Origin: Dehalococcoidia bacterium
GTDB taxonomy: Bacteria; Chloroflexota; Dehalococcoidia; Bin125
Assembly: GCA_965262235.1 (NCBI GenBank)
Contig: OZ253504.1
Span: 2,582,354-2,646,353 of the forward strand
Reading direction: 5' to 3'
Length of the DNA: 64,000 bases
The position numbers and the translations under genes were made by a program. A model generated the notes under the pieces. The model was not told the origin of the DNA. It did no database searches and worked only from the letters and a program-made list of their open reading frames with translations. Positions 2,588 through 53,130 of this stretch are shown here, in pieces (within the stretch, counting starts at the first letter, position 1; each line of letters begins with the position of its first letter).

Positions 2588-2785
2588 TCAGTCGCTGACC
2601 TCTTCGAAGGAGAAAGACCGGACGCCGATGCGCTCGCTGGCGTGTTCGAGGGTGATCGCGCAGAGTCGGCCGCCGGAGTCGAACTCAAGCAGCGTTTGCT
2701 CGTCAAGGTCGCGGGATTCCTCAATCGGCTCGGCGCACAGCTCGAGGTAGAGCGTGTCCGTGTCGGCGAAGTAAGTGACCTTCAT
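2588..2785 (-). CDS. DUF2283 domain protein
   Basis: MKVTYFADTDTLYLEL... matches the DUF2283 N-terminus. Start trimmed to the internal Met at 2785 (ORF track extends to 2905). Lies 20 bp downstream of the MTase gene on the same strand. Confidence 0.55.
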   Translation of the reverse strand: MKVTYFADTDTLYLELCAEPIEESRDLDEQTLLEFDSGGRLCAITLEHASERIGVRSFSFEEVSD

Positions 2786-2804
2786 GGCGTGGAATTCGTT
2801 GGCG

Positions 2805-5732
2805 TCAGATGACGAGCTTCGCGCCTGGGGGCCGCGCTTTGCCGCCATGCACGGAGGGTTCGGCGCACCACTTGGCGGCAAGTCGGCGCACTCCTTCGTA
2901 GACATCCTCGTCGAAGCCGAGCAGGTCGCAGATGACTCGCCGGTCGAGCAAGGCGCGATTGGGGTCGGCGTCCGCGAGGTAGGCGGGCTCGAGTTCTAGT
3001 TCGCGGAACTCATCGAAGATCGCTTCGGCATTGAAGAGCTGGATTGCGTTCAGCGAAGTCAGGTCGAGTATAGGCAAGTTGTGCATTGTCTTGACAGTCA
3101 TATCACCTCTCCCTGCCTGTGAGCGATTCGAGTGCCACCAATAGAGGAGCAGACCAAGGGTGCAATTTCCCCACAACGCAAAAGCGCAGTCATATGTATC
3201 GTTATCGAAGATGACGTTCGGCCAGGCACGACCTCCGGCGGCTTTTGTCTCGGTCATGGCCACTGCCAGAGGTTGAGAAGTGAACCGAAATCCCCGGCTA
3301 ACGTGTGAGCGGCTCACTGATTCCCACCGGTTAGATGCATTCAACTCCATGCCTGGTCGCACGATGAACTGCGAATCTGGGTGGCAGAGTATTTTGGTTT
3401 CCCGTTGAGCATTGTGTGTCCACAACGCAGGATAAGTCGCGGTCGGACTTGCAGAGGCTCGTTTGAACGGACCCTTGTGCGCGGTACTAATAAAGAGCTG
3501 AGAGTCGAGACCTCGACGGCCGATCTTGCCGAGAGCCGAAATTGCTAGTTCTGTGGGGTAGGCGTTCGGTGGGAGCCATAGCTTCCCATCGGAGAGCGAA
3601 GCGGCGATCTGGCCCACGGCTGCATCCGAGAGCCGCGCGGCTCCCCATCCAGCGTCAGAGTGAGGTGCCGGAGCGTCCAGAGTCTCTCCCACATGTTCGT
3701 CACCGATGGAGACAATCGTTCCCCCAAATGGTCCGCCTTCGACCTTTCGGATGGATTCATGGCGCGAAAGGGCCATCGCCATCCCGCTCGCATCGGCAAG
3801 GTTTCGGGGACGTCCGAGAATTGACGTGAACTTGCCGCGCGAGTCGGCGTCGCTCGGTACACGTTTCGCAGGTCGCTTTCTGGCGATGACCAGGCATTCG
3901 GCCACCCCGGTATCGTTGGAGAACGACAGGGCATGGTCCTCGCCCTCCGCGATGGTTAAGATCGTCAAGTCTTCATACTCCGCTGCGAGTAATGTCCGCA
4001 CTTTCTTCCAAGAAGACGCGTTGACCATTGATGCAAGCAGCACAAAAGCCATTACTCCTCCCTTCTTCAGCTTTCGATGTGCTATAGAGACGAATGCCGA
4101 TCCCAGGCCCGCGTGACCGTGATACGTAGTGCCTTTCGCCAGCTTCTTCACCTCAGCAGCCATGTCCGCTTGGTCTGCTTCAGTGGCGTTGAATGCGGCG
4201 AAAGCGGCGTTCAAGACCGCGTCGCCTGCATCAAAGTGCTTGGTATTACTGGTGAACGGCGGATTCATGATGACCAGATCGAAGCCGATGTCCGGAATGT
4301 CAACGGTCACCTGCGCCGCGGTCTCCTCTCCCGCACTGCCGGTGCGGAGGGCAGGATCGCTGGTGTTGAAGAGCGTTAACAGGTGCGATTCCTTTAGCAG
4401 CTCCAGCGAGCCGACCTGTACGCCGCCGTCTTCCTGGCGTCCGTAGGGCATCGTGTAGAGGCGCGACTGTTGATAGTCGATGTTGGGCTGCCCGCCGGCC
4501 AGAGTTGCGCCGGTGATGTGCACCGCCGAGGGCATCACGTCGCAGCCGTAGAGGACTTGCTCCATCATCGGGGCGTGGAGCTTGGCGGGATCGCCGCCGG
4601 CGCGTTCGTGACGGGCGGCGATCTGGTCGTAGACGGCGGAGAGCAACGCGCCGGTGCCACAGGCGAAATCGCCTACGCGGAGTTTGCCGATGGCGTCCGC
4701 ATCGGACCAGTCGATGTCTTGCAGTTTGGCGACCGCGAGGCGGGCCAGCAGCGCCGCGGAGGCAGGGCGGGTGTAGAACGTGGCGAGGTACTTCCGGTCG
4801 GCGATCAGGCGCTGGAAGATGCGGCCCGTGAGGTCATGCGCGTTGTCGATTCCGGCCGCGTCTATCTCTTGGGCGGTCTCGCGCAGTGCGGCGAGGATGT
4901 GCGCGGCCGCGCCGGACGGCAGTTGCTCGACGATGTCCTTGGCGATGGCGAAGATGGGGAAATAGTTGATCGCGAGGATCTGGTCCCAGGCGGAGAGTGT
5001 TTCTTCCTGCGGGTTGGCGACGCCGGGGCCGCAGACCATGTGGAGCGGTTTGACGCCCTCGTGCATGCCGGCGATTCGTTCGTGGAAGACAAGCGCGTTG
5101 GCGATGATGGCGCAGGCCATGCGGCGGGTCTGCGGCACGTTGCGCATGCCGAGCAGATCGGCGACGGCGCGCACGATTCCGCGCTGGGTGTCGCTCATCT
5201 CATCGAGCACGCTGGCGGCGCGCTCGATCCCCGCCTGGAGGGAATCGGCGGCCCGGTTCACTTCCTTCTGCGGCATCGAGACGAGCCGGATCAGGTCGGC
5301 GAGGTCCTCGATTCCACCGTCCAGCCAACCTGATTCGGGGAAGCGGATGCGCCGCTCGTCCTTGTCGAACTCGTCGTAGAGCACGCACCAAGAGAGGCGC
5401 GTCTGCTGCAGGGCCTCGTTCAGGTCAGCTGCGGTGCGCAGCGGGGTGGGATAGCGCAGCGCGATCGCCGCTTCGATGGCTCGCGACTCACCGATGACAA
5501 TCCTGCCCAGCCGGTCGGCGGCTTCTTGCTCGGCGGTGTAGGCGGGCATGAACTCCGCTTCGACGACGACGGGTGATCGGCCGGGCGCGGTGATCAGGTT
5601 GTCGAGCTGCCAGGCAGGATGTCCGACGATCAGCTGGGTGTGCTCGGAGCGAACGAGGCAGGCCCCCACCATCCGTTTCAGCAGACCGCCCAATGCGGTG
5701 TTGACGCTCGGCTCCGTCTGTTGGGAGGGCAT
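2805..5732 (-). CDS. large N6-adenine DNA methyltransferase-domain protein, Type IIG/IIL (MmeI-like) or PglX-like
   Basis: Gamma-class MTase motif I DFACGTGALL and motif IV NPPF about 140 aa downstream. 975 aa with about 340 aa N-terminal to the MTase core and about 450 aa C-terminal (TRD-like). The C-terminal half (about 3000-4100) is markedly AT-richer than the flanks. Confidence 0.75.
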   Translation of the reverse strand: MPSQQTEPSVNTALGGLLKRMVGACLVRSEHTQLIVGHPAWQLDNLITAPGRSPVVVEAEFMPAYTAEQEAADRLGRIVIGESRAIEAAIALRYPTPLRTAADLNEALQQTRLSWCVLYDEFDKDERRIRFPESGWLDGGIEDLADLIRLVSMPQKEVNRAADSLQAGIERAASVLDEMSDTQRGIVRAVADLLGMRNVPQTRRMACAIIANALVFHERIAGMHEGVKPLHMVCGPGVANPQEETLSAWDQILAINYFPIFAIAKDIVEQLPSGAAAHILAALRETAQEIDAAGIDNAHDLTGRIFQRLIADRKYLATFYTRPASAALLARLAVAKLQDIDWSDADAIGKLRVGDFACGTGALLSAVYDQIAARHERAGGDPAKLHAPMMEQVLYGCDVMPSAVHITGATLAGGQPNIDYQQSRLYTMPYGRQEDGGVQVGSLELLKESHLLTLFNTSDPALRTGSAGEETAAQVTVDIPDIGFDLVIMNPPFTSNTKHFDAGDAVLNAAFAAFNATEADQADMAAEVKKLAKGTTYHGHAGLGSAFVSIAHRKLKKGGVMAFVLLASMVNASSWKKVRTLLAAEYEDLTILTIAEGEDHALSFSNDTGVAECLVIARKRPAKRVPSDADSRGKFTSILGRPRNLADASGMAMALSRHESIRKVEGGPFGGTIVSIGDEHVGETLDAPAPHSDAGWGAARLSDAAVGQIAASLSDGKLWLPPNAYPTELAISALGKIGRRGLDSQLFISTAHKGPFKRASASPTATYPALWTHNAQRETKILCHPDSQFIVRPGMELNASNRWESVSRSHVSRGFRFTSQPLAVAMTETKAAGGRAWPNVIFDNDTYDCAFALWGNCTLGLLLYWWHSNRSQAGRGDMTVKTMHNLPILDLTSLNAIQLFNAEAIFDEFRELELEPAYLADADPNRALLDRRVICDLLGFDEDVYEGVRRLAAKWCAEPSVHGGKARPPGAKLVI

Positions 5733-5798
5733 GATTCTAGGTTAGGCGGCAGTGACTGCGCCGCACAACCGTTCGAGGACAACCGGAGATGTCACTCT

Positions 5799-6179
5799 TC
5801 ACCCGGGTTCCGCATCAGGCGGATATAGCCTTCGCGTTCGAAAGTCGTCCATGACCTCCATGGAGATGCAGTCGACCAGGCTGCAAGTCTTGTCGGAGAG
5901 ATTTTCGTAACGAGTAAGTGCTCGCGCGAAGAGGCCAGGGCGTTGCGCGACGACTTCAATGTTAGGGTTCGCATATAGACTACGGGTCAGTTTGGCGGCG
6001 GCGGCGCGAAGCTGCCGTCGCTTGTTCAAACGCGCCAGCACTTCGCTGAGCACACTGTCGGTAGTGACGATCTGCGCGTGTCCGACCGCTTCCTCCGCGA
6101 CGACGGCGGCCTCGTGAAGGTTATCCGCCGGATTGACCTTTGCGATCCAGAATGCGGCGTCAGCGAACACGCGGTGCAT
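5799..6179 (-). CDS. PIN-domain nuclease
   Basis: MHRVFADAAFWIA...IVTTDSVLSEV...SLVDCISMEVM...DD shows the PIN acidic residues. Alternative upstream start at 6227 would overlap the preceding gene. Confidence 0.55.
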   Translation of the reverse strand: MHRVFADAAFWIAKVNPADNLHEAAVVAEEAVGHAQIVTTDSVLSEVLARLNKRRQLRAAAAKLTRSLYANPNIEVVAQRPGLFARALTRYENLSDKTCSLVDCISMEVMDDFRTRRLYPPDAEPG

Positions 6180-6198
6180 CGGGAGAACACCCGTGGGA

Positions 6199-7113
6199 TC
6201 AGTGAGCGGCGCTGAAATAGTCGTCATGCCGGGCTGCCAAGTCTTGAGGCAGGGAGCCCCACTCGTCGTCAGGGACAGCTGCGAAGGCGGCGGTGACCAT
6301 CTCAGAAACGGTGGGGGCGGTCGGGTCGAACACCCAGTTTTCTAGACTGACATCGTCGATCGAATCGACGCGGTCGATGCGGTAGATTTCACCGTCGCTC
6401 CGGTAGCGTCCGAATCCGCGGACTCGCAGTTCGATCGAGTCGTGCTCGTGCAGGGCAGCTGTGATTTGGTCTTCCTGTTCCGGGGAGAAGATCGCGTTGA
6501 CGGACTCCGTCGTGCTCAACCATAGCTGGAAGGTGTGTCGGTGCACGTCGGCGGCGAGGACACGGCCAATCACGTCAACGATGTCATCAACGGTGTTGGG
6601 AAGGCGCCGGCGGAACTGTGCGCGTGCGATGTCATTGATTCGTGTCGGACGGCGATTCGCCGGCACGAATGCCAATGTAGCTCCGGAGGGAAGTCGCGAC
6701 CCAAGCTGGGCGTAGGTGTCGCAGAGGCTAGGGGTGAGTGCGGACGGCGGTTCCGTATCGCCTGAGACGGCGTCGTATGCGTCGCCCATGAACTTGACGG
6801 CCTCCGACAGTTCATTGTCGAACAGATCAAGCTGCTGGCCAGCAGTAGGCGAGCGGTCAAGGATGACAATAGTACTGCCCGATCTGATCTCGTGCATATG
6901 CACTTGTAGCGAATCAGTGAACCGCCGTGGCAATCGTTCGCGGTGCGGGTGACTCAGTTTCCACCTGGCCTTGGCAGTGTCAGAAATCGCACGCATGACC
7001 TTGACGACTTCCTCGAGGGCGCGATCGTCCAAGGCGCACGAGTCGTAGATGCCGCCAGAGAAACGCAGTTCGACGAGGGGGCTTTTGCTTTGGTCCATCG
7101 GTCCACTCCGCAC
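6199..7113 (-). CDS. hypothetical protein (304 aa), first gene of the MTase-containing cluster
   Basis: Long ORF with the lower-GC codon usage of this islet; no recognisable motif. Co-directional and tightly spaced with the PIN and MTase genes. Confidence 0.45.
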   Translation of the reverse strand: MRSGPMDQSKSPLVELRFSGGIYDSCALDDRALEEVVKVMRAISDTAKARWKLSHPHRERLPRRFTDSLQVHMHEIRSGSTIVILDRSPTAGQQLDLFDNELSEAVKFMGDAYDAVSGDTEPPSALTPSLCDTYAQLGSRLPSGATLAFVPANRRPTRINDIARAQFRRRLPNTVDDIVDVIGRVLAADVHRHTFQLWLSTTESVNAIFSPEQEDQITAALHEHDSIELRVRGFGRYRSDGEIYRIDRVDSIDDVSLENWVFDPTAPTVSEMVTAAFAAVPDDEWGSLPQDLAARHDDYFSAAH

Positions 7114-7204: not shown

Positions 7205-9457
7205 TTAGTGGGCGATCACGATCACGCCGCTTCGTTCTAGGGTGGCGAGTTCGTCGGCTCTTGAGATTCCGCTGAGGATTTCGTCGGCGTTGGAGCCGAG
7301 GATGGGGGCGGGCTGGCCGGGGACTACGGGGGTGCGGCTGAGGATCGCGGCGGGGCCGTTGGTGCGGATCTTGCCGCGGCCTTCGTGGTCTCTGGTGATC
7401 GAGAGGCCGCGGGACTGCGCCCAATCGCTCTCCATCGCCTCATCGACGGTGATCACTTCGGCGACGCCGATTCCCGCGCCGCGGAAGTGTTCGAGCCAGT
7501 GACTGACGGGATGGGCGCGAATGCGCCACTCGAGCTCCGCCTGCAGGCGATCACCTGCAGAGGCGACACCGCTGAGGCCGGGAACGCCCTCCAGCGCGGG
7601 GATGTCTCGCTCGCTCGCGCCGAGGAAGATCCAGCCGTCGGCGGCTTCGTAGAGGCGCTGCAGCGGGCCTTCGCCGAGCGCGCTCTGTCCGCGCGGCTCG
7701 GTCCAGGTCTTGCCCTCGTAGCCCTGCAGGAGCGACGACTGGAGGGTGCCCGCGGTGCGCGCCAGCGCGGTGTAGATCTCCTGCCCCTGACCGGTCCGCT
7801 CGCGGTGATAGAGCGCCATGCCCACGCCGAACGCGCCCATGATGCCGGTGCCGTAGTCGTTGATCGGGAACGGCTGGAGGGTCGGCGGATCGTCGCCGCC
7901 GTAGCGCGTCTGCATGCCCGTGGCGGCCTGCGCGAGCTGCTCCCAGCCGGCGCGCTCGGCCCACGGGCCGATCTCGCCGAAGGCGTTCAACGACGCGTAG
8001 ACGATGCCAGGGTGGCGCGCCGCGACATCTGCGTAGCCGATACCGAGTCGCTCGACGGCGCCCTTGCGGTAGTTCTGGACGACCACATCGGCGCCGGCGA
8101 CGAGGTTGTTGAAGATGTCGATTCCCGCCGTGGACTTGAGATCGAGCATGATGCTGCGCTTACCGCGGTTGACATCTTCGTGGAATCCGCCGCCCTCGCG
8201 TTTGGGGTCGTCGATCTTGATCACGTCAGCGCCGAACTCGGCCAGGGTTCGTCCGCAGGTCGGGCCGGCGAGGATGATGCAAAGGTCGATCGCGCGCATG
8301 CCCTCGAGCGCCTTCGAGAGTCGCGGTACGCCCTGGTAGGGCGCCGGCGGCTGCGCGGCAGCGACGCTCTCGAGGATCGCTTCGCGGTCGGCGTCGGGAG
8401 CGCGCTGTGCGTGGCCCGGCGCTCCGGGCGTGCGCGACATCCGCACCTGGATGCCCGGCTGCAGCATGGGGCCGAGGTCGGGGTCGTCGATCTCCACGAC
8501 CGCCTCCGACTGACGTGCATGTTCCTCGTGCAGCCACTCGGCGCTGTCGAGGCAGCGAACCGTCGGCGGGCCGGCCGCGTTGATCAGTTCTTCCCACTCC
8601 ATCGCAGGGCGCGTCTTGAAGATCTCGCTGAGGCGGCGGCGCGCCTCCGCCGCGAGTTCCGGTGAGCCGGCGAGCTGTGCCGATTGCGACCAGGGCTCGT
8701 CGAGCCACTCGGGGACGCCGGCGGCCTCACAGAACTGGCGCACGAAGTATGAGAACGCCGCATGGAAGAAGACCCAGCGCCCATCGGCGCACTCGTAGGC
8801 CGCGACCCACGGCATCTGTCGGCGCGTCGTGTCCTGTCCGATCACGCGCAGACCGGAGACGCCGACCGCCTGATAGATCGCGTCGTGCAGCGGCGACTCG
8901 ATGCGCTGGCCGAGCCCATCGCGCTCGCGTGCGACGAGCGCCATCGCGGTCGCCGTCACGCCGACGAACGCGCCGTAGACGGAGGCGATCGGGATCGCGG
9001 TGTAGATCGGCCGTGTCGAGGGCGTCCCGCCGAGCCGGGCGAAATATGTGCCCACGCCAGCGGAAACGACGCCCTCCCAAGCGGCGATGTCGCGCCGCTC
9101 GTCGCGCGCGCTGAAGCCGGGCATCGAGAGATAGATCAACCGGTCGTCGCGCGTGGTCATCTGCTCCGCGCCGAGGCCCAGGCGGTCCATCACGCCGGGG
9201 CGGAAGTTCTCGATCACGACATCGGCCGAGGCGATCAACTGCTCGGCGGTGCGCCGGTCGGCGCCCTGCTTGAGATCGAGGGCGATGCGCGACTTGCCGC
9301 GGTTCCAGATGGCGTTGGCGGGCGTGTCCCACGCGGGACCGCCGCGCGGGTCGACGCGAATCACCTCGGCGCCCTGGTCGGCGAGCAGCATGCCGGCGAG
9401 CGGCCCGGGGACCCACTGCCCAAAGTCGATTACGCGGAGTCCATCGAGCGCGCCCAT
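7205..9457 (-). CDS. tandem two-domain family III CoA-transferase (CaiB/BaiF x2 fusion)
   Basis: Two CaiB-type N-terminal signatures: LRVIDFGQWVPGPLAGMLLADQGAEVIRVDP and MRAIDLCIILAGPTCGRTLAEFGADVIKIDDP; 750 aa. Confidence 0.8.
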   Translation of the reverse strand: MGALDGLRVIDFGQWVPGPLAGMLLADQGAEVIRVDPRGGPAWDTPANAIWNRGKSRIALDLKQGADRRTAEQLIASADVVIENFRPGVMDRLGLGAEQMTTRDDRLIYLSMPGFSARDERRDIAAWEGVVSAGVGTYFARLGGTPSTRPIYTAIPIASVYGAFVGVTATAMALVARERDGLGQRIESPLHDAIYQAVGVSGLRVIGQDTTRRQMPWVAAYECADGRWVFFHAAFSYFVRQFCEAAGVPEWLDEPWSQSAQLAGSPELAAEARRRLSEIFKTRPAMEWEELINAAGPPTVRCLDSAEWLHEEHARQSEAVVEIDDPDLGPMLQPGIQVRMSRTPGAPGHAQRAPDADREAILESVAAAQPPAPYQGVPRLSKALEGMRAIDLCIILAGPTCGRTLAEFGADVIKIDDPKREGGGFHEDVNRGKRSIMLDLKSTAGIDIFNNLVAGADVVVQNYRKGAVERLGIGYADVAARHPGIVYASLNAFGEIGPWAERAGWEQLAQAATGMQTRYGGDDPPTLQPFPINDYGTGIMGAFGVGMALYHRERTGQGQEIYTALARTAGTLQSSLLQGYEGKTWTEPRGQSALGEGPLQRLYEAADGWIFLGASERDIPALEGVPGLSGVASAGDRLQAELEWRIRAHPVSHWLEHFRGAGIGVAEVITVDEAMESDWAQSRGLSITRDHEGRGKIRTNGPAAILSRTPVVPGQPAPILGSNADEILSGISRADELATLERSGVIVIAH

Positions 9458-9520
9458 CGGTGCCTCCTCTGCTGCGTGTGTGGGCGCAGGGTAGCTAGGC
9501 GCCGCGGGCGAGTTGCCTCG

Positions 9521-10120
9521 CTACCCGCTCAGCAACGCATCGGCCGCTTCGTCTATCACGGCGATGAATTCGGCTGGCGAGCGATCGTTGTGCAGGACCA
9601 GATTCGCTTTGGGCGCGCGTTCCTGCCAGGGCGTGGCCGACGCCCAGCGTTGCTCGGCCTCGGGGCGGGTGAGATCGTTGCGCGCCATCAGGCGCTGCAG
9701 CGCGGTCTCGGCGTCGCACGCGACGAGCCAGCCGGCGTCGCAGATCTGCATGTAGGGGCCCTCAAAGAGCCGCACGGCTTCGAAGACCGCGAGCGGCTGC
9801 GTGGCGTCGCGCAGCTCCGCGAGCAGGCGCATGAACTCGCCCTCGATGTCGCCGATCGCGGTGCGCAGTGCGGCGAGTCGCTCGGCGTTGCCGAAGACCA
9901 GCGCGCCGAGTGCCTTGCGGTCGATCGCGCCGCTCGCGGCGGTGACCTGCTCGCCGAACTCGGCGACGATCCGGCCGTGCGCGTCGGTACCGGGCTCATA
10001 CATCGCGTGGACGTAGCGGTCGGCGTCGAGGTGCGATGCGCCCCAGCGGTCAACCAGGCGTTGGCAGAGCAACGATTTCCCGGCAGCGATGGCGCCGGTG
10101 ACCCCGAGGACGATGGCCAT
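9521..10120 (-). CDS. coaE: dephospho-CoA kinase
   Basis: MAIVLGVTGAIAAGKS P-loop start and CoaE-like length. Start trimmed to the internal Met (track ORF extends to 10156). Confidence 0.8.
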   Translation of the reverse strand: MAIVLGVTGAIAAGKSLLCQRLVDRWGASHLDADRYVHAMYEPGTDAHGRIVAEFGEQVTAASGAIDRKALGALVFGNAERLAALRTAIGDIEGEFMRLLAELRDATQPLAVFEAVRLFEGPYMQICDAGWLVACDAETALQRLMARNDLTRPEAEQRWASATPWQERAPKANLVLHNDRSPAEFIAVIDEAADALLSG

Positions 10121-10188
10121 GATGATGCCCCTCGTGGCGGGAATAGTAGGGTACAAGAAATACGCGTTGTGATCGGCAATCCGGCTGC

Positions 10189-10686
10189 GTGGAGTGCGGG
10201 ATGAGTGAGTTCGAGCCGTCAGACGACGTGCCGTCGGGCACGCATGTGGCGCTGCCGATCGCCGAAGCTCACGTGAATGCCAATCTCGACTCGATCGATG
10301 CGATCGATTCGAAGGCGATGTTTCTCATCGGTCTGAATGTGGCGGGCGTCGGGATCTACGTCAGCGCTGTGGTAGCGCTCGGCTGGGGACTGGAGTGCAC
10401 GATCGCGCCCATCGCGTTCTTCCTCATCGCGACAGGCATCGGAATGTGGAGCGTGTGGCGCCTGAAGATTGCGCAGTTCCCATCGCCCGCTTCGATCATC
10501 GCGCTGCTGGGGGAGCACCTGAGCGACGAGCAGGTGGCGTGGGTCTTGCTCCATGGCATCGCCGAGGCGTCTCGCATGATCGAGCCGGTGCTCGAGCGCA
10601 AAGCGAGGCTCACGTTGGTCCTGCTGGTGCTTACCGTGAGCCACTCGGTAGCGATCGCGGGTAGCGCCGCTATCTGCGCCGGTTAG
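10189..10686 (+). CDS. hypothetical membrane protein
   Basis: 165-aa ORF with 3-4 hydrophobic helices (IGLNVAGVGIYVSAVVALGW..., IAFFLIATGIGMWSV..., LTLVLLVLTVSHSVAIAG). Confidence 0.4.
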   Translation: MECGMSEFEPSDDVPSGTHVALPIAEAHVNANLDSIDAIDSKAMFLIGLNVAGVGIYVSAVVALGWGLECTIAPIAFFLIATGIGMWSVWRLKIAQFPSPASIIALLGEHLSDEQVAWVLLHGIAEASRMIEPVLERKARLTLVLLVLTVSHSVAIAGSAAICAG

Positions 10687-11068
10687 ACGCCCTTGATGGT
10701 CCAGCCCGGCTTGATGCGCGGCAGCGGTCGCCGCTGGCCGGATCGGTCAGGCGTTGCGCGCTCGACGTCGGCTTCGTCGCCATTCGCGGGTACGTCCCGG
10801 TCGGAAGCTGCTGCGGCCATCTTTGACCCCCTTGTGCGTGTGTCGAGGGTATCAGCCGCATTGCGATGCGGTGCGCTCTTCCAGGGATTGCGCGCCGCTT
10901 CGCCGTGCCGCCGCCACCACTCGGCGATCCGTGCGTGGGCGGCCCCGTTCGCTTCCTGAGGCGAAGTCTTCGGTTCGCTGCCCACCGCCTCAGTCCGTCT
11001 GTTACAGAGTGCGGGCCCGATCAGGCTCGTCCCGGCGACTGGTGGCCGGGGCCAGGGCCGTAGGTCGC

Positions 11069-11686
11069 GTGTATTCTCGGCGAACGGTGTCTAACGACTT
11101 TTACCGATGCTCGTGGGCCGGCGAGAACAATGCGGAGGTCGCGTACCACGACGAGGAGTGGGGCGTGCCGCTGACCGATGACGTGGCGCTGTTTGAGTGC
11201 CTGACGCTTGAGGGGGCGCAGGCAGGGCTCTCGTGGAGCACGATTCTGGCGCGTCGCGAGGGCTATCGGTCGGCCTTCTGGGGCTGGGACCTGGAGCGGA
11301 TCGCGGGGGCGTCGGACGATGATCGGGAGACGCTGCGGGGCGATGTGAGGATCATCCGCAATCGGTTGAAGATCGCGGCGACCGTCGACAACGCCATCGC
11401 GACGCTGGCGCTGCGCGCCGGGGGACGCTCGCTGACGGAACTCGTCTGGGCCTACGCTGAACCCAGCGCAGGCCTCGGCGAGCTGGGCGACGTGCAGGCC
11501 CAGACCGTCGGCTCGCGGGCGCTGAGCCGCGAACTCAAGAGTCTTGGCTTTCGCTTCGTTGGACCCACCATCTGTTACGCCTTCATGCAGGCGAGTGGAA
11601 TCGTCAACGATCATCTGGCGCGGTGCTTCCGCCATGATCCGGTCGAAGCGTTGCGCCGGCCGTTGCTCGATCGCGCGATACCCTGA
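11069..11686 (+). CDS. tag: DNA-3-methyladenine glycosylase I
   Basis: YRCSWAGENNAEVAYHDEEWGVP...GLSWSTILARRE...FVGPTICYAFMQASGIVNDH collinear with Tag. Start uncertain (GTG at about 11069 or 11087); the Arg-rich N-terminal extension of the track ORF looks spurious. Confidence 0.8.
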   Translation: MYSRRTVSNDFYRCSWAGENNAEVAYHDEEWGVPLTDDVALFECLTLEGAQAGLSWSTILARREGYRSAFWGWDLERIAGASDDDRETLRGDVRIIRNRLKIAATVDNAIATLALRAGGRSLTELVWAYAEPSAGLGELGDVQAQTVGSRALSRELKSLGFRFVGPTICYAFMQASGIVNDHLARCFRHDPVEALRRPLLDRAIP

Positions 11687-11704
11687 GCGGACAAACGACG
11701 GGAA

Positions 11705-12508
11705 GTGGACATGACCTACGAACACCTCCGGGTTGAGATCGACGACCAGATCGCGACGATCACGCTGGACCGTCCGGAGAAGCTGAACGCGCTCTCGCGC
11801 GACCTGCACAACGAGATGGTCGCCGCGGCCAATGCCCTGCAGGCCGACGACGACGTGCGTGTGCTGATCGTCACGGGCGCCGGCCGGGGCTTCTGCTCGG
11901 GCGCGGACCTGACCGCGCGCCCATCGGCAAACGGCGTCTCCGAATCGCAGAATGCGCGGCTCGACGAGTTCGGCTGGGTCGGGGCGCAGGCGCTCGCCTT
12001 CGGCCAGATCGACAAGCCGACGATCGCGGCGGTGAACGGGGTCGCGGCGGGCGCGGGGATGAGCCTCGCGTTGGCCTGCGACATCCGCGTGGGCTCGGAG
12101 AAGGCGCGCTTCAAGACCGTGTTCCTCGAGCGCTCGCTCTCGCCCGACGCGGGCATGACGTGGTTCCTGCCGCGGATCGTGGGCTACGCCAAGGCGGCCG
12201 AGCTGGTGCTGACCAGCCGCTTCGTCGAGTCCGACGAGGCGCTGGAGATGGGTCTGCTCAACACCCGCGTGGCTCACGACGAGCTGATCTCGGCGGCGCG
12301 CGCGACTGCCGCGCAGATCGCATTCTGGCCGCCGCTCGCCGCCCGGTCGGCGAAGCGCGTCATGCAGCGCAACCTCAACGCCACGCTCGAAGAGGGCCTG
12401 CGAAACGAGATCACCGCGATCTCTCACGCCACCCGATCGGCGCACGATGTCGCCGAGGCGCAGGCCTCGTTCGTTGAGCGTCGTCAGCCGAACTTCACCG
12501 GCCAGTGA
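11705..12508 (+). CDS. enoyl-CoA hydratase/isomerase (crotonase family)
   Basis: ITLDRPEKLNALS...VLIVTGAGRGFCSGADL crotonase signature; 267 aa. Confidence 0.85.
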   Translation: MDMTYEHLRVEIDDQIATITLDRPEKLNALSRDLHNEMVAAANALQADDDVRVLIVTGAGRGFCSGADLTARPSANGVSESQNARLDEFGWVGAQALAFGQIDKPTIAAVNGVAAGAGMSLALACDIRVGSEKARFKTVFLERSLSPDAGMTWFLPRIVGYAKAAELVLTSRFVESDEALEMGLLNTRVAHDELISAARATAAQIAFWPPLAARSAKRVMQRNLNATLEEGLRNEITAISHATRSAHDVAEAQASFVERRQPNFTGQ

Positions 12509-13005
12509 GCGAGATTCGGATCCGCGAGGCGACGCCGCAGGACGCAGCCGAGATCCTGCGTTTCATTCGTGGGCTGGCCGAGTTCGAGGGTGAGCCGGCT
12601 GAGACGGTCAAAACGACCGAGGACGACATCCGCGCCCACGGCTTCGGGCCGGACCGCCAGTTTGAGACGCTGATCGCGGAGCGCGATGGTTCGCCGGTCG
12701 GCATGGCGCTGTTCTTTCCGCATTACTCGACCTGGGAGGGCCGGCCGGCCCTTTATCTGGAGGACCTGTTCGTCGACGCGGACGCGCGCGGGACGGGGGC
12801 TGGATATGCGCTGATGCAGCGGCTGGCGGAGATCGCCGATGAGCGCGACTGGACCCGGCTCGACCTCGCGGTGCTCGATTGGAACCCGGCGCGGCGCTTC
12901 TACGAGCGGATCGGCATGACCCACGAGTCGGAGTGGCTCACCTACCGCATGGGGCAGGACGCGATCGCCGCGCTGGCGCAGAATGAGGCGCCGCGGGAGG
13001 GCTGA
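12505..13005 (+). CDS. GNAT family N-acetyltransferase
   Basis: 166 aa with RGTGAGYALM GNAT motif; 4-bp ATGA overlap with the upstream gene. Confidence 0.75.
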   Translation: MSEIRIREATPQDAAEILRFIRGLAEFEGEPAETVKTTEDDIRAHGFGPDRQFETLIAERDGSPVGMALFFPHYSTWEGRPALYLEDLFVDADARGTGAGYALMQRLAEIADERDWTRLDLAVLDWNPARRFYERIGMTHESEWLTYRMGQDAIAALAQNEAPREG

Positions 13006-13021
13006 GTCAGGAGGGTTGAGC

Positions 13022-14236
13022 ATGGCCGAGATCACTGTCTACGGCGCGCCGTGGTGCCCGGACTGCCGGCGTGCCAAGCAGTTCCTTGCGGAGCACCGCG
13101 TCGAGTACGACTGGGTCGACATCGACCAGGACGCCGCCGCGCGGGCTCACGTTGAGCAGTTGCAGGGCGGCGGCCGGACGATCCCAACCGTCGTGCTGGG
13201 CGACGGTCGGATGCTGCTTGAGCCGGACAACGACGAGCTGGCGCGCGCGCTTGAGCTGCAGGTGAGGCCGAGCCGCTCGTTCTACGACCTCGCGATCGTC
13301 GGTGGTGGGCCGGCGGGTCTCGCGGCCGCGATCTACGCCGCGCGCGAGGGGATCGACACCGTCGTGGTCGAGCGCTCCGCGCTGGGCGGCCAGGCCGGCG
13401 TCACGAACCGGATCGATAACTACCCCGGATTTCCGGACGGGATCAGTGGGGACGAGCTGGCCAGGCGTTTCATCGAGCAGGCCGAGCGGTTCGGCGTCGA
13501 GCTGCTCTCGGCGGTGGCGACCAGCTCGATCTCGAAGCGCCCCAGCACAGGAGACGTGCAGCTGGGGCTGTCCAGCGGCGACGAGATCGGTGCGCACGCG
13601 GTGATCCTGGCGCCGGGATCGACCTATCGGCGCCTCGATGTCCCCGGAGAGACCGAGCTGATCGGCGCCTCCGTGCATTTCTGCTCAACCTGTGACGGTC
13701 CCTTCTACCGCGGGGCTGGAGAGCTGGCGGTGATCGGCGGCGGGAACTCCGCGCTCGAGGAGGGCTTGTATCTGACCCAGTTCGCCGATCGGGTGCGAAT
13801 CATCCACCGCGGCGACGCGCTGCGCGGATCGCAGGTGTTGCGCGACAAGGTTCGCGACCACGATCGGGTCGACCTCATGCTCGGCACGACGGTCGAGGCG
13901 ATGCGCGGCAACGGGTCGATCTCGGCGCTGACGCTGCGCGACCGAGCAAGCGGCGAGCTCTCGGAGTACGCACCAGATGGGGTGTTCGTGTTCATCGGCC
14001 TGCAGCCCAACACCGACTTCCTGCCGCCCGAGATTGCGGTCGACGAGCGCGGATTCGTCGTGACCAACGCGCAGTTTGAGACCTCGATCGCCGGCGTGTT
14101 CGCAGCGGGCGACAGTCGCGCCGGCTCGACCAAGCAGCTGGGCGCGGCCGTCGGGGAGGGGATCACCGCGCTGATGATGGCGCGGCAGTATCTGCAGGGC
14201 CACCAGCACATTCGCGCGGCCTCGCGGGGGGACTGA
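13022..14236 (+). CDS. trxB: glutaredoxin-like domain fused to thioredoxin-disulfide reductase
   Basis: N-terminal ITVYGAPWCPDCRRAKQFL (Grx/NrdH-like CPDC). Then GGGPAG FAD motif, CSTCDG redox-active disulfide and GGGNSA NADPH motif. Start trimmed to MAEITVYG. Confidence 0.8.
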   Translation: MAEITVYGAPWCPDCRRAKQFLAEHRVEYDWVDIDQDAAARAHVEQLQGGGRTIPTVVLGDGRMLLEPDNDELARALELQVRPSRSFYDLAIVGGGPAGLAAAIYAAREGIDTVVVERSALGGQAGVTNRIDNYPGFPDGISGDELARRFIEQAERFGVELLSAVATSSISKRPSTGDVQLGLSSGDEIGAHAVILAPGSTYRRLDVPGETELIGASVHFCSTCDGPFYRGAGELAVIGGGNSALEEGLYLTQFADRVRIIHRGDALRGSQVLRDKVRDHDRVDLMLGTTVEAMRGNGSISALTLRDRASGELSEYAPDGVFVFIGLQPNTDFLPPEIAVDERGFVVTNAQFETSIAGVFAAGDSRAGSTKQLGAAVGEGITALMMARQYLQGHQHIRAASRGD

Positions 14237-14240
14237 GTCG

Positions 14241-16808
14241 TCAGGTCCGGCCGTCGCTGAGCGGCGGCGCGGTGACGATCGCCCGGTCCGACTCGAACTG
14301 CGCAACCTCCGCCGTGCTGAAGCCAAGCTCGCTGAGGATCACGCGATTGTGCTCGCCGAGCGCAGGACTGGGCCGCATCGCCAGCTCCGGCGCCTCGCTG
14401 AAGTGGAGCGGCGAACCGGCGTATTCGAACGTCCCGACACCGGGCTGATCCCAGTCGACAACGAAGCCGCGTTCGCGCAGCTGCCTGTTGTTGAATAGGT
14501 CGCGATTGGTCAGCACCGGCATCGCTGGGACCCCCGAAGCCTGAAGGCGCTCGGCCAGCGCGAAGCGCTCCAGCCTGGTGGTGTGGGACGAGATCAGCGC
14601 ATCGATCTGGTCGTGATGGGCCCGGCGACCGGCAGCGTTGAGCCACTCGGGGTTGCGCAGTGCCTGGTCGTCAATGACCTCGCAGAACTGGAGCCAGGCT
14701 TCGTCGCTGTCGATGGTGATCGCGATCCAGACATCAAGGCCGTCGGCAGCGTCCTCGCCCGCGGGCAGGCACGGGTAGACGCCCTGGGGCGCCGCCGACC
14801 AGTCGCGGTTGGCGCGCTGCTGGGGCGGGCCGCCGATTGAGGTCAACAGCGCGAGCTCGCCGCTGATGCCGACGTACGTCTCAAGCTGCGAGATGTCGAC
14901 GAACATCCCCTCGCCGGTCCGTTCGCGCTCCGCGAGCGCGGCGATCAGGGCAAACGCGGTGTGTATGCCGCCGACCGGATCGGGGAATGCGTGGCCGAGT
15001 TTGAGCGGTCCGGCCCCGGGGTATCCGGTCACGGTGGTGGCCCCGGAGTGGGCTTCGAGGATGGGACCGTACGAGACTCGCTGCTGCAAGGGCCCGGTGT
15101 GGCCGTAGCCCGTCGCGGAGATCGAGATGATCCGCGGATTCCACTCGCGGATCGTCGCGTGATCGATCCCCAGGCTGCGCGAGCCGCGCGGGCTGAAGTT
15201 GTCGAGCACCACGTCGGCCGACTCCACCAGCCGGCGCCAGATCCGCTTGCCCTCGGCGGTCTTCAGGTCAGCGCAGAGACTGCGCTTGTTGCGGTTCATC
15301 TTGGTGAACGATCCACCGCGGTTCCAGACTGCGGGGATCGGCTCCGCGTGGGGCTGCGAGCCCGAGCGTTGCTTGCGTCCGGGTGCATTGGGCCGCGGGA
15401 GGATTCCGGCCGCCCCCCGGGTGTGCTGCTCGACCTTGATCACATCTGCGCCGAGATCGCCGAGCGTGCGCGCGGCCAACGGGCCAGCCCAGGCGTAGCC
15501 GAATTCAACCACACGGATCCCCTCGAGCAGCCGCGTCGCGCCGGCTTCAGTGCGGGTTGGTCGCGTCGCGCGCAGGATCGGCGTCGGACGCCGCTCGCCG
15601 ACGAGCGGACGCGTGCCGCTGTCGAGGAGCACGCCGTCGCCGACGAGCTGTCGCAGCTCGTTGGGCGCGCAGCCTGCCTCGGCGAGCACTTGCGCGGTGT
15701 GCTGGCCGAGCCTGGGGGCGGCTCGAAACTCGGAAGGGCTGGACGGCAGCCGGAACGGGAGCCCGGGCATCCGCGCGCCGGCGCCGAGCTCCTCGGGCGA
15801 CACCCAGAAGTCGCGCTCCCGCAGCTGCTCGTCGTCCAGCGTTTCGTCGAGCGACAGCACGGCACTGGCGGGCACGTGGTGGCCCTGAAGCGCGTCGACC
15901 ACTTCGCTGCGGCTGCGGGACATCAGCCATGGCGCCAGGCGCTGATCGATCTCGTCGGCGTGGTCGGCGCGGCCGGAGCGGGGCGCGTTCGCGCCGTAAC
16001 GCGGATCATCGGCCATCTCCGGCATCCCAATCGCGGCGCAGAGGTTACGCCACTGCGCCGGGCTCGGCGCCGCGATGCAGACCCAGCCGTCGCGGCAGGG
16101 GAAGAGCGCGACCGGGTGCGGCGTATCGACGTGCCGATTGTTGGTGCGCCGTTTGACGACCCGCTGCCAGGAGTACTGCACGAAGCTCCACTGGTGCGAG
16201 GCGGCCATCGCTTCCATCGTGCCGACATCAACCAGCTGGCCGCGACCGCTCTTGCGCCGCTCATGCAGCGCGGCCAGCGCGCCGACGGCCGCGGTGACAC
16301 CGGCGACGTAGGCCGACCAGGGGCCCGCGCCCTGCACGGGGGCGCGCGCGGGATCGCCGCTGATGTAGAGGTAGCCGCTCGCGGCCCAATCGCAGAGGTC
16401 GCTGCCGCTCCAGCCGGACCACGGGCCGCTCGCTCCATAGCGCGATACCGACACGTGGACGAGCTCGGGATTGCGCGCGCGAATCCTGGCATCGAACTCA
16501 TGCGCCGTCTCGGGATTCTCGTCCGCTGAGCTAATCACCACATCGGCGTGGTCGATCAGTTCGTCGAGCCAGCGCTGGCCGGCGGGATGATCAGCGTCGA
16601 GCGCGACGCTCTGCTTCCACGCCGCGAGGTATTCAAACAGGGCGCTGCGACCCGTCGCTTGCGTGCGCAACAGCGGTGGCATGCGCCGCAACGCAGATCC
16701 TTCGAGCGGCTCAACCAGCGTGACATCGGCGCCGGCGGTGGCGAGCAGCCGCCCGGTGTACGCCCCGGCCACACTCTGGCTCAGCTCGAGCACGCGCAGG
16801 TCGATCAT
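14241..16808 (-). CDS. tandem two-domain family III CoA-transferase (CaiB/BaiF x2 fusion)
   Basis: MIDLRVLELSQSVAGAYTGRLLATAGADVTLVEP and IRVVEFGYAWAGPLAARTLGDLGADVIKVEQ signatures; 855 aa. Confidence 0.8.
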   Translation of the reverse strand: MIDLRVLELSQSVAGAYTGRLLATAGADVTLVEPLEGSALRRMPPLLRTQATGRSALFEYLAAWKQSVALDADHPAGQRWLDELIDHADVVISSADENPETAHEFDARIRARNPELVHVSVSRYGASGPWSGWSGSDLCDWAASGYLYISGDPARAPVQGAGPWSAYVAGVTAAVGALAALHERRKSGRGQLVDVGTMEAMAASHQWSFVQYSWQRVVKRRTNNRHVDTPHPVALFPCRDGWVCIAAPSPAQWRNLCAAIGMPEMADDPRYGANAPRSGRADHADEIDQRLAPWLMSRSRSEVVDALQGHHVPASAVLSLDETLDDEQLRERDFWVSPEELGAGARMPGLPFRLPSSPSEFRAAPRLGQHTAQVLAEAGCAPNELRQLVGDGVLLDSGTRPLVGERRPTPILRATRPTRTEAGATRLLEGIRVVEFGYAWAGPLAARTLGDLGADVIKVEQHTRGAAGILPRPNAPGRKQRSGSQPHAEPIPAVWNRGGSFTKMNRNKRSLCADLKTAEGKRIWRRLVESADVVLDNFSPRGSRSLGIDHATIREWNPRIISISATGYGHTGPLQQRVSYGPILEAHSGATTVTGYPGAGPLKLGHAFPDPVGGIHTAFALIAALAERERTGEGMFVDISQLETYVGISGELALLTSIGGPPQQRANRDWSAAPQGVYPCLPAGEDAADGLDVWIAITIDSDEAWLQFCEVIDDQALRNPEWLNAAGRRAHHDQIDALISSHTTRLERFALAERLQASGVPAMPVLTNRDLFNNRQLRERGFVVDWDQPGVGTFEYAGSPLHFSEAPELAMRPSPALGEHNRVILSELGFSTAEVAQFESDRAIVTAPPLSDGRT

Positions 16809-42820: not shown

Positions 42821-43039
42821 ATGACCACGACAGAGCCCAGTCCGGCAACCTCGCAGATCAGCGAACGCGCCCGCCAGCGCGGAGTCGAGTTGTGGAGCGG
42901 CGAAGAACTGGTCGACATGCTGGACAAGATCTGCGAAGGCATGACTCAGGAAGAGCGCGAAGCGCTGGCCGACGAATTGGACCCCAAATGGCGCGACGAT
43001 GGCGGGCCTGAGTGGCGAACGGCGGACGATTTCAGTTGA
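42821..43039 (+). CDS. small hypothetical protein, possible antitoxin of the downstream PIN gene
   Basis: 72-aa acidic ORF immediately upstream of and overlapping the PIN gene. Confidence 0.35.
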   Translation: MTTTEPSPATSQISERARQRGVELWSGEELVDMLDKICEGMTQEEREALADELDPKWRDDGGPEWRTADDFS

Positions 43040-43481
43040 TACCAATGTGCTCAGCGCCATAGTGGGGCGGAGCGATGTCGGGGGCGCCTACCGAGATTTG
43101 TTGCGAAACTTCAGCGCGGTGGTGACGTATTTTGTGCGCGCTGAAATACAGGTGATCGACTGGCGACCAGCGGCATGGGACATCCTTGCAGTCTTTCTCA
43201 AAGATGATAATGCGTTTGACCCGCCAGGCTATGATGTGATCGAAGAGTATGTGCAGCTCAAACGGACAGCCATTGCGCTTGGCTTGCGCTATGGCGCAGA
43301 GCGGGAAGATCTCTGGATGCTGGCCCAGACTCGTAGCGTACAGCTGCCGGTGATGACTCACGATCGCAACGCCGCTCGCGTAGCACGGGCGGTTGGAATG
43401 CCAGTGGTGACCGCGTTATCCGACATCGAGGCGGACTACGCCCGTGATCGCGGGAGATTGGCGAGAACTCGATCGCGCTAA
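42999..43481 (+). CDS. PIN-domain ribonuclease (VapC-like toxin)
   Basis: ISVDTNVLSAIV N-terminus and EDLWMLAQTRSVQLPVMTHDRNAARVA C-terminus. Paralogous to the PIN ORF at 555-1043. Confidence 0.6.
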   Translation: MAGLSGERRTISVDTNVLSAIVGRSDVGGAYRDLLRNFSAVVTYFVRAEIQVIDWRPAAWDILAVFLKDDNAFDPPGYDVIEEYVQLKRTAIALGLRYGAEREDLWMLAQTRSVQLPVMTHDRNAARVARAVGMPVVTALSDIEADYARDRGRLARTRSR

Positions 43482-43518
43482 CTAAGTTCCAAGAACATCG
43501 CGCCCCAATGCGCCTCGA

Positions 43519-43866
43519 TCACTCTTCCTCAATCTCGATATCAGACCAGTCGTAAGCGTAGACCTGCGTGACCATTCCGCGCCACCAATGATCATTTTCC
43601 AGATTCAGCTGCATGCCTTCGGGCGCAAAACCCGCGCTGGGGCGCATTGTCGCCTTGCTCACCGCAATCGCAGGAAGCCATGGTCGCTGGTGTTTGCGAC
43701 AGACTTCGTCGCGGATGTAGCCCAACGGTAGGTTTACTCCTGGCGGGAACAGGCCGGTTGCATCCGCTAGCTCCTGATACGTGATTGTACGCATGTCTTG
43801 CGCGCGCTGCTTTAGTATCGCGAGCACTCTGTCGGTCTTGGCTGGAACTCTTACACGTTCGCTCAT
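43519..43866 (-). CDS. hypothetical protein with MGMT-like/winged-helix DNA-binding-type segment (no catalytic Cys)
   Basis: TITYQELADATGLFP...LGYIRDEVCRKHQRPWLPAIAVS resembles the Ogt/Ada C-terminal DNA-binding region but lacks PCHR. 4-bp overlap with the upstream CoA-transferase gene. Confidence 0.35.
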   Translation of the reverse strand: MSERVRVPAKTDRVLAILKQRAQDMRTITYQELADATGLFPPGVNLPLGYIRDEVCRKHQRPWLPAIAVSKATMRPSAGFAPEGMQLNLENDHWWRGMVTQVYAYDWSDIEIEEE

Positions 43867-52636: not shown

Positions 52637-53130
52637 CCGATCTCATCGACGCAAACGTCTTGATCGAGGCTTACCGAAGATACTATAGCATGGACATTTG
52701 TCCTGGGTTTTGGGACTGGCTCGGTGGTGCCTTGGCTCTCGGCGATGTCGTTCTGATTCCGCAAGTCGCGCGTGAAGTGACGCCGCGTTCTCAGATCCTA
52801 ATCAACTGGCTCCGTAATGATGCAACCATCCAGGAGCCGAGGAATCTCGCGCCAATCGATCACTCTCGTCGGCAGGTGACGGCCAGGGTCAATCAGTTGG
52901 GGTGTACTCCCTATTCTGTGAACAAGTTTATGCTTGGCGGCGATTTCCACTTGGCTGCTTTCGCAGATGCTGGGGGTCACAGGATTGTCACACTTGAGAC
53001 AAAAGAGGATCCTAACAAGTCGAGCAGAAGACTCAAGCTTCCAGACCTCTGTGACTCCATGGGCATCGAGTGGGCAAGGCCGTTTCAGATGCTTAAGGAC
53101 CACGGAGTGCGGTTCGAGTGGTCTGGATAG
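52633..53130 (+). CDS. DUF4411 (PIN-like) family protein
   Basis: MTDLIDANVLIEAYRRYYSMDICPGFWDWL matches the DUF4411 N-terminal pattern. Distinctly lower GC than the surroundings. Confidence 0.6.
   Translation: MTDLIDANVLIEAYRRYYSMDICPGFWDWLGGALALGDVVLIPQVAREVTPRSQILINWLRNDATIQEPRNLAPIDHSRRQVTARVNQLGCTPYSVNKFMLGGDFHLAAFADAGGHRIVTLETKEDPNKSSRRLKLPDLCDSMGIEWARPFQMLKDHGVRFEWSG

Follow-up and report, generated by a model that had tools for sequence, protein, structure and literature searches.

The window analysed here is a 64,000-nucleotide (nt) stretch of the genome of a Dehalococcoidia bacterium (assembly GCA_965262235.1, contig OZ253504.1, positions 2,582,354 to 2,646,353), and the region in question is an island of four genes at positions 2588-7113 of that window. 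The island encodes a 304-amino-acid (aa) protein, a PIN-domain protein, a 975-aa N6-adenine DNA methyltransferase (MTase) and a small DUF2283 protein. An earlier interpretation made from the sequence alone (the sequence-only reading) had proposed that the four genes form one undescribed defence system. We found that the region is a juxtaposition of portable defence-type modules and not a new four-gene system.

All four open reading frames (ORFs) lie on the minus strand and are spaced by 19-66 nt. The 304-aa ORF spans 6199-7113, with a likely true start at M6 (position 7098) that gives 299 aa, as in the near-identical strain represented by locus L176 (loci from other genomes are cited by L numbers). 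The gene of the PIN toxin, which is damaged in this genome, is listed as 5799-6227 and probably covers 5799..6179 (start M17 at 6179). The gene of the 975-aa protein, a candidate restriction-modification (RM) enzyme of the single-polypeptide type IIG/IIL-like kind, occupies 2805-5732 (Pfam Eco57I, E=1.4e-6). For DUF2283 the listed 105-aa ORF (2588-2905) runs into the end of the MTase gene; we placed the start at M41, which yields a 65-aa protein at 2588-2785, the same call as in L176 and L082. The starts M6, M17 and M41 were all taken from the gene calls in L176 and relatives. CoA-transferase genes flank the island on the same strand.

The GC content of 2588-7113 is 0.615 compared to a window mean of 0.670, which is the minimum among 595 sliding windows of equal size. 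At third codon positions (GC3) the MTase, PIN and 304-aa genes reach 0.67-0.74, compared to 0.85-0.92 in most other genes of the window and 0.87 and 0.88 in the flanking CoA-transferase genes. The 5' half of the MTase gene (GC 0.663) is near the window mean and thus the dip stems mainly from the other island genes and the 3' half of the MTase gene. The ORF list, the GC scan and the GC3 values therefore bear out the description of four co-directional, tightly spaced genes of lower GC content. We detected no attachment-site-like repeats around the island and no sigma-70 promoters or terminators within it above chance.

The MTase belongs to a large family. A database search with the 975-aa protein returned 5,348 proteins at E<=1e-5, and the best 120 of these are all about 965-990 aa long, are covered over their full length and share 60-77% identity with the query. 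By scanning species-representative genomes we confirmed 521 loci, nearly all of them in metagenome-assembled genomes of Dehalococcoidia/Chloroflexota and a few in Binatia. An exact look-up of the window MTase and of its 100%-identical database entry showed nothing recorded for either.

The domain order of the 975-aa protein is as follows: a restriction-endonuclease-like fold, a helical linker, a gamma-class N6-adenine methylase and a C-terminal region, which places a PD-(D/E)xK endonuclease-fold domain and the methylase in the same polypeptide. The endonuclease-like domain comprises residues 1-150 (5283..5732), with D44 encoded at 5601-5603 and E58-A-E60 at 5553-5561. The methylase core spans residues about 340-640 (3813..4712) and shows the gamma-class motif order, motif I (DFACGTGALL, residues 355-364, positions 4641-4670) standing ahead of motif IV (NPPF, residues 490-493, positions 4254-4265). 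In an alignment of 20 sequences every residue of both motifs is invariant, as is D44-x13-E58-A-E60. Residues about 641-975 (2808..3812) presumably serve in target recognition, judging from the domain order. In the conservation profile this region is conserved across the family; the most variable stretch of the protein is residues 626-750, where a specificity determinant would be expected.

The AlphaFold model of the MTase has a mean predicted local distance difference test (pLDDT) score of 51 overall, with confident values for residues 1-290 and values below 50 for the C-terminal region. The first ~150 residues are modelled as alpha-beta-beta-beta-alpha-beta; the second strand carries D44 and the third carries E58-x-E60. 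The top Foldseek matches of the model are DrdV, LlaBIII, BsaXI and BpuSI, with the type IIL enzyme DrdV in first place (E=5.6e-8, about 690 aligned columns), and PglX and MmeI are also among the structural matches. Both the invariant motifs and the fold agree with the sequence-only reading, which had described a gamma-class methylase core in a single-polypeptide, type IIG/IIL-like architecture.

The label MmeI/PglX-like did not hold at the level of sequence. We found no Pfam match to MmeI_N, MmeI_hel, MmeI_Mtase, MmeI_TRD or MmeI_C and no PDB sequence match at E<=0.01, and MmeI-family membership by sequence is thus ruled out. The window MTase further differs from the type IIL/IIG enzymes MmeI, DrdV and BpuSI in carrying D-x13-ExE and not ExK. 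It resembles PglX of BREX systems in its large size, in its gamma-class N6-adenine methylase and in having additional domains at either end, with weak structural matches; the NCBIfam BREX_1 and BREX_6 MTaseX models, however, score about 17 bits compared to cut-offs of 500 and 900, and no BrxA, BrxB, BrxC, PglZ or BrxL genes lie nearby. When 56 ORFs of the window were scanned with PADLOC, the strong matches included no family of BREX or DISARM. Such genes were also missing from the syntenic loci described below, left flanks included, and from the families most frequent next to the MTase at 81 loci. This agrees with the earlier statement that BREX and DISARM genes are absent nearby and, by way of the syntenic loci of relatives, extends it to the left flank; BREX genes just outside the window would have changed the interpretation. 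With weak matches to the methylase core only and no partner genes, membership in BREX, DISARM or MADS is ruled out; the one mad3 match in the window belongs to a distant HEC-01 ATPase at 54867. A phage origin of the family was also rejected, since viral matches are limited to the methylase core, in haloviruses and four IMG/VR contigs. A search of PHROGs returned only families without an assigned function.

To characterise the genomic setting of the MTase we examined 80 other genome loci out of the 521 confirmed ones (some tallies use 81, counting L001). In 79 of the 80 there are no homologs of the 304-aa, PIN or DUF2283 genes. The exception, L002, has the same CoA-transferase flanks and is therefore the same locus in a relative. 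The closest MTase homolog (77% identity) is solitary among metabolic genes. The 141 ORFs found within 1 kb upstream of the MTase match PIN (11) and HigA-like helix-turn-helix HTH_3 (6) more often than any other Pfam family. Downstream we encountered Replic_Relax (4), CAP12/Pycsar TIR (3), AAA_15/AAA_21 (3), GmrSD_C (2) and AbiTii (1).

One arrangement recurs: a gene that reads from its sequence as ribbon-helix-helix (RHH)-like, a PIN gene and the MTase form a block that is kept in eight loci (L021, L024, L041, L043, L052, L058, L073 and L077, at about 9200-14700). In seven of the eight (not L052) the first 0.2-2 kb downstream of the MTase are also conserved. A full-length Replic_Relax gene of ~570 aa follows the MTase in L024, L041, L058 and L073; the far upstream flanks differ. 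The identities of the toxin region and of the MTase are discordant: L021 and L024 share 97% in the MTase and 78% in the toxin region, L024 and L041 share 72% and 93%, respectively, which suggests recombination at the junction. In one of these cassette loci a gene 5 kb downstream reads as a putative large serine recombinase. Plasmid homologs of the MTase (27-37% identity) adjoin type IV secretion system genes in Nitrosospira and follow PRTRC genes in Sulfuricystis. With 79 of 80 loci lacking the neighbours seen in the window, with varied mobile and defence contexts and with homologs on plasmids, the MTase family is cargo of mobile elements and defence islands and is independent of those neighbours.

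Two further observations concern the family itself. In L031 (7036-12892), L042 (6814-12934) and L056 (6899-12865) two full-length MTase paralogs stand in tandem on the same strand and are 54-57% and 60-63% identical to the query. L003 (13346-13558), L050 (13738-13953) and L060 (10001-10090) carry direct copies of the 30-80 C-terminal residues of the MTase a few hundred bases from the full gene, which may be recombination remnants or cassette-like fragments.

There are two ways to read the N-terminal nuclease fold. The sequence-only reading had noted D-x13-ExE where MmeI has ExK and had suggested a degenerate nuclease. The segment is there and is invariant; degeneracy does not have to follow. 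An alignment of the N-terminal part, with the two plasmid homologs included, shows no variation at E7, N11, D44, E58, R74 and W136. Position 60 is E in all sequences but L094, the most distant homolog, which has K and thus the canonical ExK (VVIEGKY). As ExE is conserved family-wide and ExK occurs in a distant homolog, ExE appears to be a conserved family trait on a PD-(D/E)xK scaffold and not obvious decay. The other possibility is a modification-only enzyme, that is an orphan or anti-restriction methylase of integrative and conjugative elements (ICEs), with a dead nuclease fold and with upstream toxin modules that merely stabilise the element. The E in place of the canonical K in nearly all members fits this explanation, as do the apparent mobile contexts (the plasmid homologs beside secretion and PRTRC genes, the cassettes with a Replic_Relax gene and the putative recombinase) and the conservation along the MTase, which is fairly even and shows no hypervariable specificity domain. 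However, E7, D44 and E58 never vary and E60 hardly does, also in homologs of 27-37% identity, which argues for a maintained active site; BamHI also has E where the canonical motif has K; the best structural matches are bifunctional enzymes; and defence genes are enriched among the neighbours. We consider a modification-only enzyme quite unlikely.

The 304-aa protein and the PIN protein are best described together. The 304-aa protein has no Pfam or NCBIfam match, and the sequence-only reading had left it as an unknown protein. This is true for Pfam and has to be revised otherwise: the protein matches the PADLOC model PDC-M32A at E=1.8e-28 (profile positions 4-251 of 375), and its relatives match the first ~250 profile positions at E values from 1.8e-28 to 2.7e-57. 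The structural model (pLDDT 91) comprises an N-terminal alpha/beta domain, an oligonucleotide/oligosaccharide-binding (OB) fold at about residues 174-256 and a short helical tail, and the OB fold may bind a nucleic acid or protein ligand. The tail holds the most conserved motif of the family, W..LP.DL..RHD.Y(LYG), which reads W..LP.DL..RHDDY in this protein. An exhaustive HMMER search for the family returned 1,040 cluster representatives at E<=1e-3, nearly all of about 300 aa, which puts the family at about 1,000 clusters at 50% identity.

The pairing with a PIN gene is close to strict. For four distant members (23-31% identity, on unrelated contigs) a PIN gene of 135-137 aa comes next in all four cases; stop and start overlap in three of them and a gap of 3 nt separates the genes in the fourth. 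Their contexts are hsdR-hsdS-[pair]-hsdM, the pair with an overlapping HsdM-like methylase, the pair with SIR2 and a 945-aa protein, and the pair alone among metabolic genes. A narrower alignment gave a further 80 metagenome loci of the family. Where the contig leaves room, a PIN gene of the same subfamily directly follows the 304-aa gene in 60 of 66 loci. Type I RM genes lie near the pair in 29 of the 80, mostly as HsdR-HsdS-[pair]-HsdM. An HsdM-type gene begins no more than about 330 nt past the PIN gene in 18 of 50 loci with room, with a 4-nt overlap in 7 of these 18, and the top Pfam families after PIN are HsdM_N (9) and N6_Mtase (8). A recurrent link of the 304-aa/PIN family to methylase genes is thereby confirmed. 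By these neighbourhoods the two genes form a separate, widespread and portable two-gene module. Because the gene pairing is strict and the C-terminal tail is conserved, we infer that the 304-aa protein neutralises the PIN protein through its tail, by analogy with the tails of antitoxins.

At one type I RM locus (L143) an extra ORF of ~380 aa lies between the 304-aa/PIN pair and hsdM, at about 5397-6539. A scan of 50 downstream ORFs included one Fic/DOC protein, which is possibly this very ORF; if so, several toxin modules can stack there.

In the window the PIN gene is damaged. The protein still matches Pfam PIN (E=1.9e-6, 29 bits compared to a cut-off of 23.6), but in a protein alignment with seven homologs its C-terminus is unlike all of them. 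DNA alignments with four orthologs and with L176 show that 35 bp are missing, with the junction at about 5842/5843; the deleted segment encodes G-I-R-D-V-L-T-A-D-R-D and the frame is shifted. The strain of L176 is >99% identical and has an intact 140-aa PIN gene (L176 6920-7342), which differs from the window at just two further places in 430 nt. Where L176 reads GAC GAC TTC GGT ... AGA GAC TTC GAA, the window reads GAC GAC TTT CGA. The junction is what the loss of 36 bp between two copies of the 7-bp repeat GACTTCG, together with the gain of a single T, would produce. A genuine extra T would mean a frameshift; a homopolymer error at this point would mean that the reading frame is kept and that twelve residues are missing. 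Under either reading LTADRD, which holds the fourth conserved acidic residue of PIN domains, is absent. All four acidic residues are present in the intact orthologs and LTADRD is intact in L176. The alignment with L176 also locates the original C-terminal coding segment (FEREGYIRLMRNPGEE and the stop), which lies at 5792-5842 on the minus strand and is out of frame if the extra T is genuine. As the segment with the last conserved acidic residue is lost, the PIN toxin of this genome is probably dead. The earlier suggestion that the MTase delegates DNA cleavage to its PIN partner therefore fails in this genome, LTADRD being gone. PIN toxins of the VapC type are RNases.

We compared the pair to three known kinds of toxin module. 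PDC-M32 is a phage defence candidate of PADLOC; such candidates were predicted from their position inside BREX, DISARM or type I RM loci ("guilt by embedding", bioRxiv 10.1101/2024.01.29.577857). The pair and PDC-M32 are both two-gene modules with overlapping genes and both occur within RM loci. They differ in that the 304-aa protein has a distinct tail of ~50 residues where PDC-M32A has its C-terminal ~120 residues, and in that the true PDC-M32B (Rhizobium pRLN2, L095 7095-7517, 140 aa) has no Pfam domain, whereas the partner here is a PIN protein. No PADLOC model matched the window PIN or the four PIN partners of the distant relatives. An identification of the PIN protein as PDC-M32B is ruled out on this ground, as the genuine M32B of L095 matches at 3.5e-35. 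On sequence grounds the 304-aa/PIN module thus looks related to PDC-M32, from which it differs in tail and effector.

With VapBC the pair shares a PIN toxin gene that stands close behind, or overlaps, a co-oriented partner gene. However, the partner here is an OB-fold protein of ~300 aa and not a small DNA-binding antitoxin of the RHH, AbrB, HTH or Phd kind. The NCBIfam VapC model scores 23 on the window PIN compared to a cut-off of 80, and of the four acidic residues that mark such toxins the window PIN lacks the one deleted with LTADRD. The third comparison is PrrC with EcoprrI, where an RNase-type toxin is encoded inside a type I RM operon, as is the case for hsdR-hsdS-[pair]-hsdM. PrrC is an ABC-ATPase anticodon nuclease and has no separate partner. 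Toxin modules that cluster with RM genes, and PIN genes within type I RM operons, have already been described (Matelska et al. 2017, PMC5499597). The same survey reported no PIN genes beside RM systems without a specificity subunit, whereas we observed PIN modules upstream of a single-polypeptide enzyme.

The likeness to PrrC raises the possibility of an integrated guard. The 304-aa/PIN pair would then be linked in function to the methylase or RM enzyme next to it: the OB-fold protein would keep watch on that enzyme or on a phage anti-restriction factor, and a block of restriction would set the PIN RNase free; in the window the guard would be freshly disabled. The pair is indeed recurrent, co-oriented and often translationally coupled directly upstream of two or more types of N6-adenine methylase (HsdM-like, 975-aa family), and the related PDC-M32 was itself discovered through its embedding in RM, BREX or DISARM loci. 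The cluster has been kept at this locus across deep divergence, and independent PIN modules lie upstream of the 975-aa family. On the other side, about half of the pair loci with good flanks have no nearby type I RM gene (for example the one among metabolic genes and the one beside SIR2), the MTase family mostly occurs without the pair, and clusters of toxin-antitoxin modules and RM genes that are not directly coupled are known (PMC5499597). On balance we regard a guard as rather unlikely.

The DUF2283 gene has a clear Pfam match (PF10049, 52 bits compared to a cut-off of 23, E=7.8e-14). At MTase loci it is present only in the syntenic relatives L002, L082, L084, L085 and L176, and is missing in L083 and in 79 other MTase loci. 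Among the loci examined we found no linkage of DUF2283 to the MTase family or to the 304-aa/PIN pair away from the syntenic site. It is thus a lineage-specific passenger. The functional literature that we found on DUF2283 links the domain to the ICE regulators FseA and QseM.

The close homologs of the 304-aa protein (46-56% identical) all lie at one syntenic site with the order (CoaE-CoA-transferase)-304-PIN-MTase-DUF2283-(CoA-transferase). Since they share this site, the four-gene loci count as one acquisition. In L083 (9336-12229) the MTase is split into ORFs of 380 aa and 585 aa and DUF2283 is missing, which, next to the other members of the site, means that the island decays differently in different lineages. 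These data bear directly on the proposal of an obligate defence system made up of the 304-aa protein, PIN, MTase and DUF2283. The co-directional, closely spaced genes and their joint retention in L002, L082, L084, L085 and L176 would suit such a system, but those loci are a single acquisition, L083 has parted with DUF2283 and an intact MTase, and the combination is missing in 79 of 80 other MTase loci and in all 80 metagenome loci of the pair. The proposal is largely refuted by the neighbourhood data and we consider it very improbable. The sequence-only reading had also reasoned that the MTase would be an ordinary RM enzyme beside an unrelated toxin-antitoxin pair if homologs of the 304-aa and PIN genes never co-occurred with it elsewhere. 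The outcome is divided: among the loci examined, co-occurrence with this MTase is confined to the syntenic site, whereas HsdM-type methylases recurrently adjoin the pair.

Several other modules were encountered in the window. At 122-1043 on the plus strand there is an overlapping pair of a 146-aa protein without a domain match and a 162-aa protein with a weak PIN match (Pfam E=0.0022, below threshold). Pairs like it in size and position occur in L082 and L176, and the PIN domain is annotated in L082; this is probably another toxin/partner module just outside the island. About 48 kb from the island, at 54867-56590 on the plus strand, there is a separate defence system of two genes. Its 383-aa ABC-ATPase matches HEC-01A of PADLOC (E=1e-134) and its 192-aa protein matches HEC-01B (E=4.9e-53); weaker matches are to AriA, OLD and Gabija ATPases. 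A low-GC3 pair at 51443-53127 (plus strand) starts with a 397-aa protein (51443-52633) that matches CapP/RmrA-type metallopeptidase models (E=1.6e-18); the N-terminus of the 165-aa protein that follows appears to resemble PIN/DUF4411 (LIDANVLIEAY), and this protein has no PADLOC match. Finally, two low-GC3 ORFs at 42999-43866 adjoin another pair of CoA-transferase-like genes: one of 160 aa on the plus strand with a seemingly PIN-like N-terminus (SVDTNVLSAIVG) and one of 115 aa on the minus strand, with no PADLOC match for either.

We think it fairly probable that the island holds an RM-type enzyme beside which stand a decaying RM-associated toxin/partner module and a passenger gene. The region would be a small, old genomic island in a Chloroflexota genome in which three separable modules are juxtaposed. 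The first is the 975-aa enzyme, which would methylate host DNA at a specific motif and cut unmodified incoming DNA in the type IIG/IIL manner, and whose family travels on integrative elements and plasmids. In the second the 304-aa OB-fold protein would hold the PIN RNase inactive through its conserved C-terminal tail; freed upon infection or upon loss of the module, the RNase would give rise to toxin-antitoxin or abortive-infection behaviour. Modules of this family are portable and are often inserted just ahead of an N6-adenine methylase gene, most of all in type I RM operons, where they separate hsdS from hsdM; they are therefore probably a stabiliser or a second line of defence for RM loci. 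The third module would be the orphan DUF2283 gene. The analysis shows the gene content, folds, conserved motifs, neighbourhood counts and the PIN deletion; from these we infer the methylation and cleavage by the enzyme, the neutralisation of the PIN protein by the 304-aa protein and any defence phenotype.

A number of points weigh against this explanation. The four genes have been kept together over a long divergence: the 304-aa orthologs are 46-56% identical compared to 76-81% for the CoA-transferases, and such long retention is compatible with selection for the combination. Various PIN modules stand directly upstream of the MTase family, which hints at more than chance adjacency, and the neighbourhood counts were taken without correction for shared ancestry. 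In nearly all members of the MTase family the catalytic lysine of PD-ExK is replaced by glutamate and the nuclease could be inactive. The assignment of target recognition to the C-terminus follows from domain order, the model being poor past residue ~290. A bolder interpretation is that the OB-fold protein and the PIN protein form an undescribed, widespread class of RM-coupled abortive-infection systems, which would sense failure or inhibition of the adjacent RM system, or phage nucleic acid, and would then release the PIN RNase: a PrrC-like guard made from different parts that also serves single-polypeptide RM enzymes. We hold this to be unlikely.

What is new is the OB-fold partner family with its near-obligate PIN pairing, the preferred place of the pair directly upstream of a methylase gene, and the presence of this pair, as of further PIN modules, ahead of genes for a family of single-polypeptide enzymes. 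The 304-aa/PIN pair is a concrete and testable case of physical linkage between a toxin module and methylase genes; it adds a PIN effector to what the candidate PDC-M32 covers, and an OB fold is now recognised in the partner protein. That these modules decay where they stand is seen from the PIN deletion, which is specific to one strain. Should the 975-aa family prove to be an active RM enzyme, it would rank among the commonest restriction-type genes of soil Chloroflexota, as yet unnamed, and its motif specificities would then aid the reading of methylomes of uncultured soil Chloroflexota.

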